44,039 nt of DNA from a phage, in assembly GCA_030821775.1 (NCBI GenBank), contig GCA_030821775.1_4700.1; one strand, 5' to 3'. The notes under the pieces were generated by a model. It was not told where the DNA came from, made no database searches, and was given only the letters and a program-made list of their open reading frames with translations. This document shows positions 4,628 through 44,039 of the stretch, piece after piece; the stretch's first letter is position 1; every line of letters begins with the position of its first letter. A program made the translations under genes and the position numbers.

Positions 4628-4825
4628 TTAATCGTCGGTTTCTTCTTCGTCGTCACCGTAAAGCTCCTCGACTTTCTCTTTAATTGCCTCGATAGACAGG
4701 CCAAGCTCTTCGGCCTCTGCAAGAATAGTGTAAGGTGGAGTCATGCCGCATGAGTAACTTTCAAAGATAGCCTCTGCTACCTCAACGGCACGAGTTGCCT
4801 TCATGGAATCAAATACTTGTGTCAT
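4628..4825 (-). CDS. Small acidic hypothetical protein
   Basis: Track ORF 4628..4879 trimmed to the first ATG (MTQVFD...); C-terminus is acidic (GDDEEETDD); upstream of the GNAT gene. Confidence 0.35.
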   Translation of the reverse strand: MTQVFDSMKATRAVEVAEAIFESYSCGMTPPYTILAEAEELGLSIEAIKEKVEELYGDDEEETDD

Positions 4826-5243
4826 GTTTCCTCCATTTACCTGCGAGCACAAGGCCCACATATGAACGAGACATACCAAGTATATCGGAGATACGTTGTT
4901 GTGTGAGGCCTTCTTCTCTTAATTTAAATACTTTAGCTATAGTTTCATTATTAAATTTGCATACTCCAGATTTCTCTCCACTTGCAGTTCTTCCCTTACG
5001 CTGCCTGTCTTCCATGTTCTCTTTATGTGAACCTAATACAAGGTGTAAAGGGTTTATGCAGCGAGGATTGTCACAAGTGTGCATGATGACCTTGCCTTTT
5101 ATATCAGATAGACTGACATTATTATAAGAACAGTAAGCAGCACGGTGAGCAGGGGTTGTTTTACCTTCAAACTTCACAGAGCCATAACCTTTATGGTTTC
5201 CCTTTTGCCGATGATCAATACACATCAGGTACTTCCTTATCAT
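4809..5243 (-). CDS. HNH homing endonuclease with C-terminal HTH
   Basis: 144-aa ORF with HNH-type residues (GYG...H...CDNPRCINPLHL) and a C-terminal HTH (LTQQRISDILGMSRSYV); overlaps the 3' end of the ligase gene. Confidence 0.7.
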   Translation of the reverse strand: MIRKYLMCIDHRQKGNHKGYGSVKFEGKTTPAHRAAYCSYNNVSLSDIKGKVIMHTCDNPRCINPLHLVLGSHKENMEDRQRKGRTASGEKSGVCKFNNETIAKVFKLREEGLTQQRISDILGMSRSYVGLVLAGKWRKHDTSI

Positions 5244-12223: not shown

Positions 12224-14797
12224 TTAGTGAGTCTCTTTCCAGCTTGCGCCAATCTTATATTCACCTGCCATCGGACAGCGCATCTTAAGATACTGACCAG
12301 CCCAAGTCATGGCGTCGGCAATGATATGCCCTGCACGGTGATAACGACGCTGGCAATGCAATACACCAGCATCAGCATCAACGCTAACGAGATTTGCAGC
12401 AGACCACATACGTCCCTCAGAATCCACATGAACACGTTTCTCCTCTGCATCGAACACTGCTTTCACAGCAGCCTTCTCTGTTTCAAATCCTTCTAAGGTG
12501 AAAGGTAGGTCATAGTTAAGATACAAGACCTCCTCTTCAGGGACTTCCATCTGTATTTCATCGTGCACGTTAGCTACACCACAAGGGTTTCCCATAGCAT
12601 CCAAGGCTACACCCTCCTTGCGCATCACTGCAAATGCCTTGACCAGTGCGTATTTCATACACAAAGAGCCAGTCATCTGGAGCAATACGTTAAGCATAGT
12701 GTGTTCTTTAAGTTCACCACCGGACATACGGATGCGACCCCAATGCCCATCAGGTGCTTGCAGGTAGCCAAACTTGTTACCTTGTGCGATAACATTCTCG
12801 CGAAGACGTGCAAGAGACGGTAGTTCAATCTCGAATCTTGCCACAACTTCCTTCATTTCATCCTCAGTGACACCGCATACTGCTGCAAGGTTAGCTATAC
12901 CAGAGCCATAGAGGAAGGCATATATAAACGTCTTCGCCATGTCACGCTTAGGAAGACCAGCCTTCATCTGGTTATGCGTATGGATGTCACCATGAAGTAC
13001 AATCTCTTGGTATTCGGGGTCATTCATGAAGTGAGACAGTACACGCAGTTCAAGACCTGCACCATCACAACCAAGGATTAGCTTGCCTTTCCCTGCTATG
13101 AATAAATCACGTAGAGGATACAAGCCACGGGCAGGAATATTAACCACGTTGCGATGACGCATACGGAACGTAGAAGTGCCAATACTAATAGCAACAGCTG
13201 GCACACGCCACTCTCCGTCATCTTTGTCAGACGTAGGCCAACATCCATACCTCGCATAGTATTGCTGCGCATTGATTCCTAGCTCCTTATTAAATGCTAC
13301 AGGTATAAGGCCGCGACACTTTCGTACACCAGCCTGCGAGGGCCACGCCCCCTTCTGATTGAAGGCTTCAACGTCACCACGGTTGAGGATCTGACCACGA
13401 CGGGATACGAGTATGTACCATGCAGCGATACCCAAGCACCAATCAGGGACTGTTTTACCTTCACGTGTGGCTCTTTCTTGCCATAAAGTGATGGACTTCT
13501 CATTTATCTTACCACTCCACGGCTTAGGTAATACACCATGTTCATCAATGTAGGCCTGTTCTGTATCATTAAACTCAACACCTCTCCATCCGAACCCATA
13601 AAGCACTTGTTTAACAGTCTCACGGTTTCCCAAGGGAATGTCTTCAAACGTGACGGGAGAGTAAGCGCCAATGTGCTTGATGCTAGGTGTGTCATTCTTG
13701 TTACCACGGAGGTGAGGGAAGTCTTTCTTGACAGTAGCAGACCAATCTCCAGACTTAGTGGTGACAGCCCAAACCGTCTGCCGATCTCCGCGCCGTTCGG
13801 CATGGATAAAAGCCTCGCTAGACAACGTGACTCCAATTCCGTGAAGTCTACTATACTCATTTGCTTTATCAACTTGCGCCTCCTTCTCTTGAGCTTTGAA
13901 TGGTTTAGACTTGATACGCATAGGCATGTGTGGACGAAAGGCTGCGACTGTCTCGTCAATCTTGGCGTCCAGTTCTTCGCATCGCGCTAACGCCTTGTCG
14001 ATGTCCAGACGGAACCCGCGTTCGGCCTGACGGCTCATCTCCAGCGCCACAATGGACTCCATGTGGAAGGCTGTCTCAATGCCCAAGCCAGTGCGTTTAT
14101 TCACGCCACGGCGTTTGTGTTCCATCCATTCCCCGTTAAAGAGCCAGAGGAACAGGTCACGACCGATTGCCACGTCCTCACGTACACGGTGAACCATGTG
14201 GTCAGTTAGTTTAGACCAGTCCTCGTTCTCCGGTTTATAGCGGCCTATACGGATGCCGTGCGCCTCAATTGAGTGAGGGGCAACGTTACCCATACCTTTG
14301 GCGTATGCTTGCGGAGGGAGGCGTCTATCGGGGTTTAACAGGCGGCTCATCACCAGCGTGTCCATGACTCGCACAGGACACAGGTCGGCACGAAGCCTGC
14401 CCTTGCCGCGCTTCTCGGTGTAGTTAAAGCCTTTCCATATAGTAGGGAATGCTTTCTCAAAGAGAAGCCCGTCATACCCTAGGAAGTTCTGTGACACGAT
14501 AGCTTCACAGTGCTTCAGGAAGTTAACACCGTCAACCAAGTCACCGTCTTGGTGGCCTTCCCATTCCTTCATACGTTCTCTTGCTTCATGGTCACGCATC
14601 TCATATGGGTCAAAGAAGAGAAACTCCTCGGTAGTAAGCAAGTCCATGCAGCAAATGATATGCACATCTTCACGGTGTCCATATCGGATAGCATCAAGGA
14701 GGCCTTTACTTTCGGCGTCCATGACGAGGATGCGGCCTTCTGCCTCCTTCTTCCAATCAATAATCTTCATACATTGCCTCTGTTTCGTAGTAGTCAT
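12224..14797 (-). CDS. DNA polymerase (family A, T7 gp5-like)
   Basis: 857-aa ORF in the expected position after primase/helicase; true start may be the ATG at 14770 (GAGG SD). Confidence 0.85.
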   Translation of the reverse strand: MTTTKQRQCMKIIDWKKEAEGRILVMDAESKGLLDAIRYGHREDVHIICCMDLLTTEEFLFFDPYEMRDHEARERMKEWEGHQDGDLVDGVNFLKHCEAIVSQNFLGYDGLLFEKAFPTIWKGFNYTEKRGKGRLRADLCPVRVMDTLVMSRLLNPDRRLPPQAYAKGMGNVAPHSIEAHGIRIGRYKPENEDWSKLTDHMVHRVREDVAIGRDLFLWLFNGEWMEHKRRGVNKRTGLGIETAFHMESIVALEMSRQAERGFRLDIDKALARCEELDAKIDETVAAFRPHMPMRIKSKPFKAQEKEAQVDKANEYSRLHGIGVTLSSEAFIHAERRGDRQTVWAVTTKSGDWSATVKKDFPHLRGNKNDTPSIKHIGAYSPVTFEDIPLGNRETVKQVLYGFGWRGVEFNDTEQAYIDEHGVLPKPWSGKINEKSITLWQERATREGKTVPDWCLGIAAWYILVSRRGQILNRGDVEAFNQKGAWPSQAGVRKCRGLIPVAFNKELGINAQQYYARYGCWPTSDKDDGEWRVPAVAISIGTSTFRMRHRNVVNIPARGLYPLRDLFIAGKGKLILGCDGAGLELRVLSHFMNDPEYQEIVLHGDIHTHNQMKAGLPKRDMAKTFIYAFLYGSGIANLAAVCGVTEDEMKEVVARFEIELPSLARLRENVIAQGNKFGYLQAPDGHWGRIRMSGGELKEHTMLNVLLQMTGSLCMKYALVKAFAVMRKEGVALDAMGNPCGVANVHDEIQMEVPEEEVLYLNYDLPFTLEGFETEKAAVKAVFDAEEKRVHVDSEGRMWSAANLVSVDADAGVLHCQRRYHRAGHIIADAMTWAGQYLKMRCPMAGEYKIGASWKETH

Positions 14798-14864
14798 CTG
14801 AACGTTCGGGTTTTGGATTCATTGAGTCATAGTAGTCCCAATCAGAATCATAATCACGTGGCAT
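14757..14864 (-). CDS. Small acidic Asp/Tyr-rich ORF (35 aa)
   Basis: Hand-translated MPRDYDSDWDYYDSMNPKPERSDDYYETEAMYEDY with GGAGG SD; stop overlaps the probable DNA polymerase start. Below the track size cutoff. Confidence 0.3.
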   Translation of the reverse strand: MPRDYDSDWDYYDSMNPKPERSDDYYETEAMYEDY

Positions 14865-14894
14865 AATGCACCTCCAATCAATATGATAAAAGGC

Positions 14895-14912
14895 TGTCCA
14901 ACACGTTGGACA
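14895..14912. repeat. Conserved palindrome, copy P2 (TGTCCAACACGTTGGACA)
   Basis: Perfect 18-bp palindrome with complementary AAGG/CCTT flanks, in the gap upstream of the DNA polymerase gene. Confidence 0.8.
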
Positions 14913-14921
14913 ACCCTTGAC

Positions 14922-15131
14922 TTACCGACTGCGTGTTACAGTTAATTTCTGGCCCATGTATTTACCTTGGTGCGGTTCCCAAGTGGCCTCCTTAATAACC
15001 TGTTCACGAGTGAGACTATTCTTTTTGGCTTCAGCCATAGTCAACTGTGCAAACAGGAAGGCTTGGTTAGTAATTTGTGCTTGCAGGTCTTCGTGACCAT
15101 CGAACATCTTAAGGCTGTGTTTATTTTGCAT
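14922..15131 (-). CDS. Hypothetical protein
   Basis: 69-aa ORF, overlaps the stop of the upstream gene. Confidence 0.4.
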   Translation of the reverse strand: MQNKHSLKMFDGHEDLQAQITNQAFLFAQLTMAEAKKNSLTREQVIKEATWEPHQGKYMGQKLTVTRSR

Positions 15132-15336
15132 GTTTCACCATAAAGCTGCCAATAACTTTCCAACGATTACGGAATTGCTTCTCAGTAAGACAACCATATA
15201 GGACCATTTGAAAACTAGCTGACATACCAGCACCTCGTATTGCATTGGGTTTATAACTCACAATTTTAACACCATTTGGTGATACAATACCATAAAACTT
15301 TTCACCGCAGTCTCTGATAATTAGAACTTTAGTCAT
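15121..15336 (-). CDS. Hypothetical protein
   Basis: 71-aa ORF with strong SD (TAAGGAGTTAATC before ATG). Confidence 0.5.
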   Translation of the reverse strand: MTKVLIIRDCGEKFYGIVSPNGVKIVSYKPNAIRGAGMSASFQMVLYGCLTEKQFRNRWKVIGSFMVKHAK

Positions 15337-15346
15337 GATTAACTCC

Positions 15347-16030
15347 TTAGATTTTCACGTAGGTTTCTTCAGTAACGATAGGGAGGTACAGTAATTCTTC
15401 ACCATTCAAGATGTGAAGACCTTTCAATCCTTGCTTAATGATAATATCTTCTATGGTTTTAGCAAAATTGGTATTAGCTACACGACGAGGTGTGCCATGC
15501 TCTGTGATTGCATGGTCAACATCATGATTCGCACAGGTACATTAGGGTGCATCATGGCTTCACCAATCTTCACCATAGCTTGTCCGGTGGATTTACCAAG
15601 AGCACGAGTGTTAAACTGTGTAACACCTAATGCAGTGCCACACAGCTTAATCATTTCACTTTGGGTCTTACCAGTGATTACATTGCGGCGCTCTTTCTTG
15701 AGTGTGGTCTTTGCTTTGCCACATGCCTCTGCTAAAGTTTGAATGCCACCACTATAGAGGTGTGCTGTAATATCACTTTCTGCATCTGGCGAGCGCACTT
15801 GTCGCAAATCTCATCATGTATGCACTTACATTGGTTGTTTACCTCTACAATCTTTTCAAGGTATTTATGTGCGTTCTTCTTGTTATAGAAAGCCTTAATA
15901 CCATTATCATATACTACATGATACAGGTTCTCACTTACATTATGCACTACACCATGACAACGATAGAGACGTGATGTTTATTGATGTTACGAACATAATC
16001 ACCTACATTCAATACTAATTTATACATAAT
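15347..16030 (-). pseudogene. Frameshift-disrupted gene, possibly a degenerate HTH-containing homing endonuclease
   Basis: Four consecutive minus-strand ORF segments in different frames (about 27 aa, 71 aa, 109 aa, 64 aa) tile this ~680-bp region; includes a Cys cluster (CKCIHDEICDKC) and an HTH-like stretch (TQSEMIKLCGTALGVTQFNTRAL). Confidence 0.4.
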
Positions 16031-16064
16031 CAATCTCCAGTTATTAATGTACTTAATAAGAGCC

Positions 16065-16082
16065 TGTCCAACATATTGGACA
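16065..16082. repeat. Conserved palindrome, copy P3 (TGTCCAACATATTGGACA)
   Basis: Perfect palindrome ~17 nt downstream of the primase/helicase stop. Confidence 0.8.
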
Positions 16083-16098
16083 AGCCCTGATAAGCACA

Positions 16099-18090
16099 CT
16101 AGAACTCCTGCTCTTCTTCGAAGTTACCTTGTTCTATAGTGTCCCCTAAATCAGCAGGCACCTCTTGCTGCTTAGGTACACCTGTATCAAAGCTCTTGGT
16201 TCGTGCTTGTGGTTCCCTCAATCTACCGGTAGCAAGGTCTCCTTTAAGCATAACCTTAGTTCCTGTGAAGATACCTTGGTCACGGTCTTTGACACATGAG
16301 ATGTACGTGGTAGTCCTTTCATCAAGCGTTTCAGCTCTTGTGTTACGCTCAATCCCCAATGCGTAAGATGCCCAGAATCCGATAGCTCCTGAGCCTCGGA
16401 AGTCAGAAAGGATAACCTCGCCACCTTCCTCGTGTTGGGTGCGGTTCCCCGCAGGACGTGTAAGGTGTGATACAAGGAATATAGTAACTGGGTGTCGGTC
16501 TTTGATAGTACCAATCCGCTTGACGCATTCATCAAGTGCACCAACCTTCCCACCATATGCTCTTTCATCTAATTTAATCCCAGTTAAGTTATCAATAAAG
16601 ATATTCTGAATCCCCATAGCTTCAAACTCTAAGCAGGTCTGCTCAATCTTCTCCATTGAGTAGTCACCTTCGAGGTCAGCTACAAAGAACTTACCCGTAT
16701 CAGCCACGTAGTCGATAGCTTCAGCCGCTTCCTCATCGGTATAGTCCAGCACCTCGCGGTAGCCATCCTCTTGCGGGTCGTTGGTTGGCGGCAACTCAAT
16801 GCGCTTATCAATCCACTTCCCGATGAATGCACGGGCAACCTTCTTGGTTGGGTCTTCTGTAGAGATAATGCCTACAGACTCGCCGTGCTCTTCGATGAGG
16901 TGCTTAACCACTTCACGAAGGAACTCAGTCTTACCTACACCGGAGCCAGCACCGACGATGATTAGCTGGTGCTTACGGATACCAAGCGTTACCTTGTTCA
17001 GCTTAGGCCAAGGCCACGACAGCCCTTCTTCTGGACGTGCCTGCTTGAGTTCGTCACGCATAGACGCAACGGACTTAATCTGGCTACCGAAGACTTCCTC
17101 AGAAGACTTGGCATTAAACCAAGCATCGACAAACTCTTTGGCCTTACCCGCCATCAAAGACTTGTTAGCATCCTTGCAACCACTTGGATACTCAAGGATG
17201 TAGGATTTGCCGGGAAACAGGCGAGCCGCTTGTTGGTTCTGCTTCTGCCCTACCTCGTCGCCATCGAATCCCCAGATAATCTTCTTGAATTGGGCGATGT
17301 GTTCACGGTTCTGCACAATCTCTTCAAGGCAAGATTCACCTTTGTTAACAGACCACACATGGTAAGGTTGCCCTTCCCACTTAGTACCCTTGGCAGAATC
17401 AAGGAGCATTTGCTGGGCTGCTAATGCATCCAGTTCACCACCCACGATAAGCAAGATATCTTTTCTTCTTCCCTTGTCCAACGTGTTGGACAGGGTATTC
17501 ATACCGAAAAGATCTTGTGTACCAAAGAGTTTACCTAGGTGTCCGAACTTAAAATCCTTCGGCAACGTCCGGCATTTTGCTCCAACAAGCACCCCCTTTT
17601 CATATCGTGGATAATAGTGACGGTTGACTCTTCCCTCTTCATCGTGTCCAACGCGCACATCGTACATTGCTGCGATGTCACCTCGAATGTGACGGGATAC
17701 AAGGTTCTTACGCTTAAGCGTGAGGAACCATTCAACATCAAGTTTCCACTCTGTTTCTTGGTCTGCCCTTTCTTGCTCATTCATAACCTCCCAACGGTCT
17801 TTCATACGCATACCACCAAGGGCGATGGCGCGTAGTTTAGGGTCGCTTATCTTCCCTTCTTTCTCCATCTCTTTGAATTGAGAAGGTGTGTATTTGATGT
17901 TGCCGGTAATAGGCAACTCGGTTATTTCGATGCCACCTTCCGGCTTATGGTAATAAGGTCTGCCATTATCATGGAAGTGACCACGGTTACAGTAGCCAGC
18001 ACCATCCTCGAATATCATAAGGTGGTTGCCTGATTTATCGTGTCCATTCTTCTGGCATTGAGGGCACGGAATGTTATTAATAATAGCCAT
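16099..18090 (-). CDS. DNA primase/helicase (T7 gp4-like)
   Basis: 663-aa ORF with an N-terminal Cys4 zinc ribbon (CPQC...C..GH) and a Walker A P-loop (GAGSGVGKTE) in the C-terminal helicase half. Confidence 0.9.
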   Translation of the reverse strand: MAIINNIPCPQCQKNGHDKSGNHLMIFEDGAGYCNRGHFHDNGRPYYHKPEGGIEITELPITGNIKYTPSQFKEMEKEGKISDPKLRAIALGGMRMKDRWEVMNEQERADQETEWKLDVEWFLTLKRKNLVSRHIRGDIAAMYDVRVGHDEEGRVNRHYYPRYEKGVLVGAKCRTLPKDFKFGHLGKLFGTQDLFGMNTLSNTLDKGRRKDILLIVGGELDALAAQQMLLDSAKGTKWEGQPYHVWSVNKGESCLEEIVQNREHIAQFKKIIWGFDGDEVGQKQNQQAARLFPGKSYILEYPSGCKDANKSLMAGKAKEFVDAWFNAKSSEEVFGSQIKSVASMRDELKQARPEEGLSWPWPKLNKVTLGIRKHQLIIVGAGSGVGKTEFLREVVKHLIEEHGESVGIISTEDPTKKVARAFIGKWIDKRIELPPTNDPQEDGYREVLDYTDEEAAEAIDYVADTGKFFVADLEGDYSMEKIEQTCLEFEAMGIQNIFIDNLTGIKLDERAYGGKVGALDECVKRIGTIKDRHPVTIFLVSHLTRPAGNRTQHEEGGEVILSDFRGSGAIGFWASYALGIERNTRAETLDERTTTYISCVKDRDQGIFTGTKVMLKGDLATGRLREPQARTKSFDTGVPKQQEVPADLGDTIEQGNFEEEQEF
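16134..16151 (-). promoter_or_regulatory. SP6-type phage promoter inside the 3' end of the primase/helicase gene
   Basis: Plus CTATAGTGTCCCCTAAAT located within the last ~17 codons of the gene. Confidence 0.7.
17475..17492. repeat. Conserved palindrome, copy P4, inside the primase/helicase coding sequence
   Basis: Perfect palindrome TGTCCAACGTGTTGGACA; encodes ...TLSNTLDKG... about 200 codons into the gene. Confidence 0.8.
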
Positions 18091-43294: not shown

Positions 43295-44025
43295 CAGAAC
43301 CTCCAAGGACGTGGCGGGTAAGAGTCATAAGGCGAGTGAGAGAAACCCGCAACGTTCTGGTAGCCACCAGCCATGACACCAAACTGCGCCTGAGTTGGAT
43401 TATGTACAAGCATATTGAGTCGCTTCTGAGCAGACTGCTCCGCCTGTACGCTTGTGAGAAGTTGAGATGCGATAACTTGGTGAGTTTGCAGTTTAGTCTT
43501 GTCTGCAGCCTTAGACACAATGAACTCACACGCTGCATGATAGGTGATTGCCTGCATCACACTTGTAGGTAGATGCTCGAATGGTAACATCATAACCAGT
43601 GTCAGCCGGATATTGCCGTCACGGTTCACATGGCTACGCAGGTCGAACGTATGATTCCAAGTAGAGTACAGCTTACCTGCTCGCATGGTCATTGGGACTT
43701 TCTTGTCATTAAGACCATAACATTGCAGAACAGCCAAGGTATTGTTAGGTAGGTTCACTTCACCGTTTGAGTCTGGAGTTAGGTTCCAGTTAGGCTCACG
43801 GTTGAACCACCAGCCGTTCCCTTGGTTGTACTGGAAACGCTGTGACACAATATCGACAATCTTGTTCGCATCCTCTGCGTCCAAGTCACCAGACTCTAAG
43901 GAGTCCACACCTTCACGCCCAATGGCTCGCATACACACGTTGACAGCCTCTAACTTGCTATCAATGATGTTGAATGCTGCATCAGACATTAAGGATGTTA
44001 CATCACTTTCCTGAATAAGTGGCAT
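43294..44025 (-). CDS. Tail tubular protein A (T7 gp11-like)
   Basis: 243-aa ORF with AGGAGG SD; if the window is circular, its start follows the capsid terminator at position 1 directly. Confidence 0.75.
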   Translation of the reverse strand: MPLIQESDVTSLMSDAAFNIIDSKLEAVNVCMRAIGREGVDSLESGDLDAEDANKIVDIVSQRFQYNQGNGWWFNREPNWNLTPDSNGEVNLPNNTLAVLQCYGLNDKKVPMTMRAGKLYSTWNHTFDLRSHVNRDGNIRLTLVMMLPFEHLPTSVMQAITYHAACEFIVSKAADKTKLQTHQVIASQLLTSVQAEQSAQKRLNMLVHNPTQAQFGVMAGGYQNVAGFSHSPYDSYPPRPWRF

Positions 44026-44039
44026 GAATCCTCCTAAAC

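Follow-up and report, generated by a model that had tools for sequence, protein, structure and literature searches.

A probably fresh gene 10 pseudogene, carrying three single-base deletions, in the genome of an SP6/K1E-like podophage

Gene 10 of the phages K1E (YP_424981.1) and K1-5 (YP_654108.1) is annotated as a single 684-bp gene encoding a protein of 227 aa, and the same single gene is annotated at the same place in Salmonella phage SE29. It follows the primase/helicase gene and precedes gp10.5, gp11 and the DNA polymerase gene, and in some relatives a small ORF 9.5 lies between the primase/helicase gene and gp10. This gp10 gene order was found in all gene orders examined (K1E, K1-5, SE29 and the related genomes L005 and L019 to L030). 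Full-length gp10 is detected by tblastn in 139 phage records from Escherichia, Klebsiella, Salmonella, Proteus and other hosts, and large protein databases hold several hundred homologues. K1E gp10 matches phrog_6703 (E = 2.6e-123), which PHROGs lists as function unknown; no function of the K1E/K1-5 gp10 family is described in the sources that we searched, and a literature search on Vectrevirus gp10, its escape or its frameshifts returned nothing specific. Two other kinds of described system resemble the locus reported here. The HNH homing endonucleases of T7/SP6-like phages, such as K1E gp40.5, are small accessory ORFs like gp10, may carry Cys residues together with an HTH-type DNA-binding domain, and are often found as pseudogenes. 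Programmed -1 frameshifting is known from T7 gene 10A/10B, lambda G/GT and slippery sites of the dnaX type, where overlapping frames on the same strand are joined by a -1 shift, as the gp10 fragments described below would need.

The DNA analysed here (44,039 nt, in the following called the window) is the complete, circularly permuted genome of an SP6/K1E-like podophage (Autographiviridae, Molineuxvirinae), with a nucleotide identity of about 83-85% to Vectrevirus phages, e.g. K1E and K1-5. The genes are oriented along the minus strand, and tblastn with the K1E proteins recovers the K1E-type order of RNA polymerase, primase/helicase, small genes, DNA polymerase and so on. Exact-protein matches identify the window as Logan contig DRR388001_120, which was assembled from k-mers of an E. 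coli sample, and the contig's proteins are also present in an NCBI TPA annotation of an E. coli sample with locus tags QHT08_0041xx; no second, independent isolate emerged from these matches. The Logan contig is 44,069 nt long, and the difference of 30 nt looks like the k-1 overlap to be expected when a k=31 contig is circular. Of the two ends of the window, 1-50 and 43990-44039, the former begins with A14, i.e. T14 on the coding strand, which is the U-tract of a hairpin terminator directly after the major capsid gene; K1E has only TTCTTTTT at this position. Joining the end of the window to its start reproduces the capsid-gp32 intergenic layout of K1E, and the contig is therefore a circular permutation broken within the T-run. 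The window was absent from collections of phages, plasmids and complete E. coli genomes and, using a clade-specific 40-mer, from the IMG/VR, JGI metagenome and GTDB collections. For comparison of the locus nothing nearer than L005, with ~91% nucleotide identity, was found. The features of the locus are the following.

12224..14797, minus strand: DNA polymerase gene, intact, 93% identical to K1E gp13 in a single frame
14922..15131, minus strand: gp11 homologue (69 aa), amino acids 100% identical to K1E gp11
15121..15336, minus strand: gp10.5 homologue (71 aa), intact, downstream of gp10; the exact protein is NCBI HDT1684162.1
15347..16027, minus strand: gp10 pseudogene, orthologue of K1E/K1-5 gene 10 (227 aa, phrog_6703) by alignments and tblastn
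16045..16101, minus strand: RNA hairpin between the promoter and the gp10 ribosome-binding site
16099..18090, minus strand: primase/helicase gene (663 aa), intact, upstream of gp10, 93% identical to K1E gp9 in a single frame
16131..16148, minus strand: SP6-type phage RNA polymerase promoter, TAGGGGACACTATAGAAC, found by pattern scan

The promoter precedes gp10 by ~100 nt and is situated inside the primase/helicase gene, at its 3' end. Matches to the SP6-type promoter (TAGGNGACACTATAGNAG, at most 2 mismatches) occur 14 times in the window compared to 0.33 expected, and 12 of them are on the coding strand, at 1312, 6857, 10421, 11700, 12163, 16131, 18267, 18430, 22165, 28380, 30029 and 38408. 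The hairpin has a minimum free energy of -31.6 kcal/mol (z = -5.6), with equally good folds in 0 of 200 shuffled sequences, and is probably a processing or stabilising stem-loop. It is followed by GGAG and then by the gp10 ATG at 16027; since promoter and hairpin are placed directly upstream of these signals, the locus still appears set up for high expression. On the other side of the gene the ribosome-binding site of gp10.5 overlaps the gp10 stop codon. By tblastn all genes around gp10 (primase/helicase, gp10.5, gp11, gp11.5 and DNA polymerase) are intact.

Some further observations on this region are given here for completeness. While gp11 is identical in amino acids to its K1E counterpart, its flanking genes are only 57-93% identical to those of K1E, so that gp11 resembles a recent recombination patch adjoining the broken gp10. 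One phage record matches part of 14700-16400 at 99% or more. In L005 (13184-13824) the DNA polymerase gene is split into parts of 624 aa and 210 aa by an inserted 106-aa ORF, which is probably a mobile intron or endonuclease cassette, and the window is without this insert. The G+C content of gp10 (15347-16027) is 39.6% compared to 47.5% for the whole window, which resembles the composition of an acquired accessory gene more than that of a core gene.

The first-pass annotation of this DNA, made from the letters alone, had described four ORF fragments of about 27, 71, 109 and 64 aa, lying in different frames of the coding strand and tiling 15347-16030, and had proposed that they were pieces of one frameshifted gene. 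Translation of the minus strand reproduces the four fragments, and comparison with the orthologous loci in relatives demonstrates that they do belong to a single gene, gp10, the start of which is at 16027 rather than 16030, giving a length of 681 bp compared to 684 bp in the orthologues. When K1E gp10 is aligned to the window by tblastn, four HSPs in three frames are obtained. The deletions responsible were placed by alignment with K1E gp10, K1-5 gp10, SE29, L005 and L030, the ancestral states being fixed by the two closer relatives L005 (Logan SRR27716065; about 91% identical over the gp10 region) and L030 (ENA ERZ17990865). Segments and deletions, all on the minus strand, are listed below with the lost base in brackets.

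16027..15947: segment A, from ATG to TAG, 26 aa
15979..15980: deletion 1, codon 17, AAT[G]AAACA, a lone G lost, changing AATGAAACATCACG to AAT-AAACATCACG
~15977 to the stop at 15734..15732: segment B, 71 aa from a GTG
15761..15762: deletion 2, codon ~90, CAGCAC[C]ACCTC, one C of CC lost, changing CAGCACCACCTC to CAGCACACCTC
15810..15478: segment C, 109 aa from a TTG
15523..15524: deletion 3, codon 169, ATCAT[G]GATG, one G of GG lost, changing ATCATGGATG to ATCATGATG
15541..15347: segment D, ~64 open codons, ending at the native TAA

The ancestral context of deletion 1, between 15980 and 15979, is AATGAAACA with a lone G; this G is kept in L030, whose gp10 has 97% identity to the window copy in its first 114 nt, and loss of the G leads frame A to the stop at 15949..15947 after 26 aa. 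Deletion 2 leads frame B to the stop at 15734..15732, and an intact QHHLYSGG allele is found at this site in the homologue P0230. Deletion 3, where L030 and K1-5 both have ATCATGGAT, leads frame C to the stop at 15480..15478, beyond which frame D continues as far as the native stop (15349..15347). The deletion sites are spaced 217 and 238 nt from one another. Their three shifts of -1 add up to -3, so that the last segment is again in the frame of the start codon and closes with the native stop codon. A functional member of phrog_6703 has an uninterrupted ORF of ~227 codons; because the window copy has no such single ORF it is a pseudogene member of the family and not a functional one, and its frame is disrupted relative to intact orthologues as in a recent pseudogene. 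In other words, the feature is a frameshift pseudogene of a known but uncharacterised phage gene family, and it differs from K1E/K1-5 gene 10 in that three single bases are missing and the native start yields a peptide of at most 26 aa. Adding the three lost bases to the window copy gives the length of K1E/K1-5 gene 10, to which the repaired protein has 78-82% amino-acid identity.

It is clear that the damage is confined to this gene. When all 59 K1E proteins were compared with the window (~50 genes) by tblastn, gp10 was the only gene found to be split across frames, in agreement with the earlier impression that genes of 2-4 kb elsewhere in the window are intact, and in the alignment of the window with L005 no other uncompensated non-triplet indel was found within coding regions. 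Given one indel in gp10, the probability that two further random indels fall within the same 681 of 44,039 nt is (681/44039)^2, or ~2.4e-4. The early suspicion that random sequencing error could hardly be the sole cause is supported by both results.

To judge the age of the damage we looked at the constraint on the repaired gene. After restoration of the three bases no in-frame stop codon is present in gp10. The repaired protein contains 2 residues unseen in the 120 homologues listed for it, compared to a median of 1 for intact members and 3 for the homologue P0001. Compared with its closest relative L005, gp10 has a dN/dS of 0.165, while pairs of intact genes range from 0.19 to 0.47, and 5 of the 6 substitutions unique to the window lineage are synonymous and 1 is nonsynonymous. 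The first-pass annotation had called the gene decaying, a description that does not hold: the signs of long-standing decay (raised dN/dS, changes at conserved sites, stops after repair) are not seen, and the gene shows normal purifying selection. It follows from this selection that inactivation would be very recent rather than the outcome of long-term erosion, and gp10 is, as read from its substitution pattern, a fresh pseudogene that was under constraint until very recently. A single frameshift already kills the gene, so three of them call for a special argument. With an ordinary ratio of substitutions to indels, neutral accumulation would add at least 10 substitutions, mostly nonsynonymous. 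These extra substitutions are not seen, and neutral accumulation therefore explains deletions 2 and 3 poorly.

The best of the matches listed for the repaired protein is P0001 (E = 6.8e-132, 90% identity, 100% coverage), and all 120 listed homologues are single full-length proteins. In the alignment the N-terminal part is variable and in Vectrevirus includes a CxC...CxxC cluster, while the C-terminal module is strongly conserved (RRNVITGKTQ...FNTRALGxSTGQA...DVDHA...FNPIVTEETYVE) with D172, H173, G204 and P217 invariant. The AlphaFold model of gp10 (whole-protein pLDDT 83) has an N-terminal SH3/KOW-like barrel, for which Foldseek returns NdhS, the Spt5 KOW domain and the Pif1 SH3 domain with E values of about 1e-3, and the conserved C-terminal module is modelled as winged-helix-like. 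N-terminal barrel, Cys cluster and C-terminal module are common to K1E/K1-5 gene 10 and the window copy. Neither the intact orthologues nor the repaired window protein gave a significant match in Pfam, NCBIfam or PADLOC, a sequence search of PDB with gp10 gave no significant match, and an Rfam search of the whole window gave no match. From the predicted fold, gp10 is probably an accessory factor binding nucleic acid or protein.

Broken copies of gp10 occur in other phages as well. An independent gp10 frameshift is located near aa 133 in L023 (SRR33053353), with no other split gene over ~20 kb, and another near aa 101-106 in L024 (ERR11477224), where the one other split concerns a doubtful 32-aa ORF. 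Three samples (L027 to L029) have a frameshift at aa 162, and the first of these is otherwise unsplit over ~20 kb. L025 (ERR4562404) has a frameshift at aa 178 with no other K1E homologue split; it is a less clean case, as a further 1-nt deletion apparently shortens gp16 near its start. In the two IMG/VR contigs L014 and L015 only gp10 is frameshifted within +/-1.5 kb. Further truncated alleles of 98-131 aa occur on contigs of up to 44.5 kb, and the family phrog_29871 in PHROGs corresponds to a C-terminal fragment of gp10. With independent frameshifts in at least four further assemblies that are otherwise intact, gp10 gives the impression of a dispensable gene that has been lost repeatedly, and an enrichment of frameshifts in gp10 over other genes is suggestive. 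As a control we searched in the same way for truncated fragments of the N-terminus of the essential gp32 and obtained 0 candidates, a zero that carries no weight given the way in which candidates are retrieved.

Not all split records could be counted as recurrence. KY435490 and vB_Eco_Sem2 were discarded because many essential genes are split genome-wide, i.e. by sequencing errors, and the extra frameshifts of L026 were discarded as homopolymer indels near a contig end. L025 and L026 (ERR4562404 and ERR4562402) differ by 0 substitutions and 5 single-base indels, 4 of which are in A/T runs of 4-5 bases; 3 of the 5 cluster in gp10-gp10.5 near the end of the L026 contig, an odd clustering, and these indels are probably platform or low-coverage errors. 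The truncated allele P0227, of 121 aa and from a Logan contig of 44,514 nt, reads ...TTLKKKKKKKSVAM*, with an expanded poly-A replacing AAGAAAGAG; either slippage or an error of assembly could have produced it.

Collectively, these data lead us to consider it fairly likely that the window carries a freshly inactivated gp10 of an SP6/K1E-like podophage, disrupted by three genuine 1-nt deletions. The explanation that competes most seriously is a local sequencing or assembly artefact over an intact gp10, caused by the platform, low local coverage or bubble-popping in a mixed population. It is true that each of the three changes removes a single nucleotide and that two of them affect dinucleotide runs, that after repair the gene seems fully functional, just as an artefact predicts, and that error-driven gp10 splits occur in other records. 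Against this, gp10 alone is affected in 44 kb despite 189 homopolymer runs of at least 4 bases, among which 171 four-base and 17 five-base runs have caused no frameshift, and the deletions themselves removed a lone G and one base each of a CC and a GG pair, with no homopolymer runs at the sites, a pattern that is the opposite of platform homopolymer error. The random clustering chance given above (about 2e-4) also speaks against it. Moreover, the NCBI records of the same sample hold gp10.5, gp11 and RNA polymerase but no intact gp10, and among the listed matches even the best one to the repaired protein, which is from a different sample, reaches no more than 90% identity. The assembly method likewise counts against an artefact, as every k-mer of a k=31 de Bruijn contig must occur in the reads. 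We therefore regard an artefact as rather unlikely, and judge from the assembly and database records that the three deletions are likely to be genuine.

A second explanation, put forward in the first-pass annotation on the basis of a Cys cluster and an HTH motif like that of the HNH endonuclease ORF at 4809-5243, is a selfish HNH/HTH homing endonuclease decaying after its fixation and loss of function. The Cys cluster is real (CKCIHDEICDKC), a helix-rich winged-helix-like module is present, and true HNH endonucleases populate this genome and its relatives; the likeness of the HTH to the HNH ORF, on the other hand, disappears on comparison (BLASTP E = 53). ORF 4809-5243 matches HNH_3 and zf-His_Me_endon, while no HNH, GIY-YIG, LAGLIDADG or other nuclease domain is found in gp10 with Pfam and NCBIfam, and the fold searches return SH3/KOW and winged-helix domains only. 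Unlike the HNH endonucleases, gp10 is neither sporadic nor a mobile cassette in or beside a host gene, being present at the same locus in all relatives examined and full-length in the 139 phage records, and it shows purifying selection in place of decay. Taken together this makes an endonuclease origin very improbable. The true endonuclease at 4809-5243 (minus strand) has a C-terminal HTH and is an insertion in the region close to the ligase gene; none of the K1E proteins that match the window corresponds to it.

Even less probable is programmed recoding, where three -1 ribosomal frameshifts or transcriptional slippage would restore the full-length protein. It is correct that all junctions need the same -1 shift and that the net -3 restores the frame of the start codon. 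Unlike T7 10A/10B, lambda G/GT and dnaX, however, gp10 would require three shifts and not one, and it has neither a slippery heptamer nor a conserved shift: no canonical X_XXY_YYZ or relaxed heptamer is found in the overlap zones (31, 79 and 64 nt), there are no homopolymer runs at the sites and the three have no motif in common. Furthermore, the 120 listed homologues and the examined orthologues have a single ORF apart from the frameshifted alleles, and the frameshifts in other genomes lie at different positions, so that a two-frame arrangement is not conserved. Gene callers do call ORFs of 50 aa and 106 aa in the region, but it is hardly credible that the four segments are independently translated small proteins, as they are collinear with a single 227-aa protein, their breaks cut the SH3-like barrel and the conserved C-terminal module, GTG and TTG are the only starts available to segments B to D, with no ribosome-binding site seen by eye, and the split architecture is found in no relative. 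Recoding and short overlapping genes had also been ranked as the weaker alternatives at the outset, and that ranking stands. CRISPR escape by PAM loss in CC/GG pairs was rejected, since deletion 1 removes a lone G and not part of such a pair, and no spacer-length match was found in 5,426 complete E. coli genomes (E <= 10).

Returning to the reading that we prefer, a recent inactivation of gp10 by three real deletions, the -1 shifts would end translation from the native ATG after 26 codons, and a credible start would be lacking in all segments further downstream. Because independent frameshift alleles recur in other phages, loss of gp10 may be tolerated or even favoured in some hosts. Two routes to a triple deletion may be envisaged. 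Either gp10 was selected against in the host carrying the phage, and stepwise hits in the 3'-to-5' direction would have removed N-terminal fragments that were still harmful, or several knockout alleles rose together in one population and would have been joined by recombination. The locus is a mosaic, its 5' part being 97% identical to L030 and the next segment 97-98% identical to L005, which points to frequent recombination there.

Phages can escape defence systems by inactivating the gene that is sensed, as described in a preprint (Stokar-Avihail et al., bioRxiv 10.1101/2022.08.27.505566). The escaper mutations in the preprint are like those in gp10 in so far as a non-essential gene is repeatedly inactivated while the rest of the genome is intact, and unlike them in that the escaper genes are tied there to a defence system, whereas gp10 is not known to be connected with a defence system, a host phenotype or a trigger role; the parallel is one that we infer by analogy. 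By extension, gp10 could be a "sensitivity determinant", an expressed accessory protein sensed by or costly in some E. coli hosts, so that loss-of-function alleles would be selected again and again, the triple deletion recording either a stepwise elimination or a recombined soft sweep during persistent carriage in the sequenced culture, an idea that we put forward as speculative and on balance doubtful.

The first consequence of the analysis is a corrected annotation: the locus holds one broken gene, and neither four small ORFs nor an endonuclease. What stands out is the triple hit with no sign of decay together with the apparent recurrence of gp10 knockouts. The SP6/K1E-like phages serve in capsule-targeted therapy and in engineering, and gp10 is to be flagged in them as a class-II gene that is conserved but apparently dispensable and has a phage promoter of its own for its expression. 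If the recurrent, gene-specific knockouts are true, gp10 would be a candidate host-defence trigger or fitness-cost gene, and it would at the same time be a candidate safe site for insertions or deletions in phage engineering.
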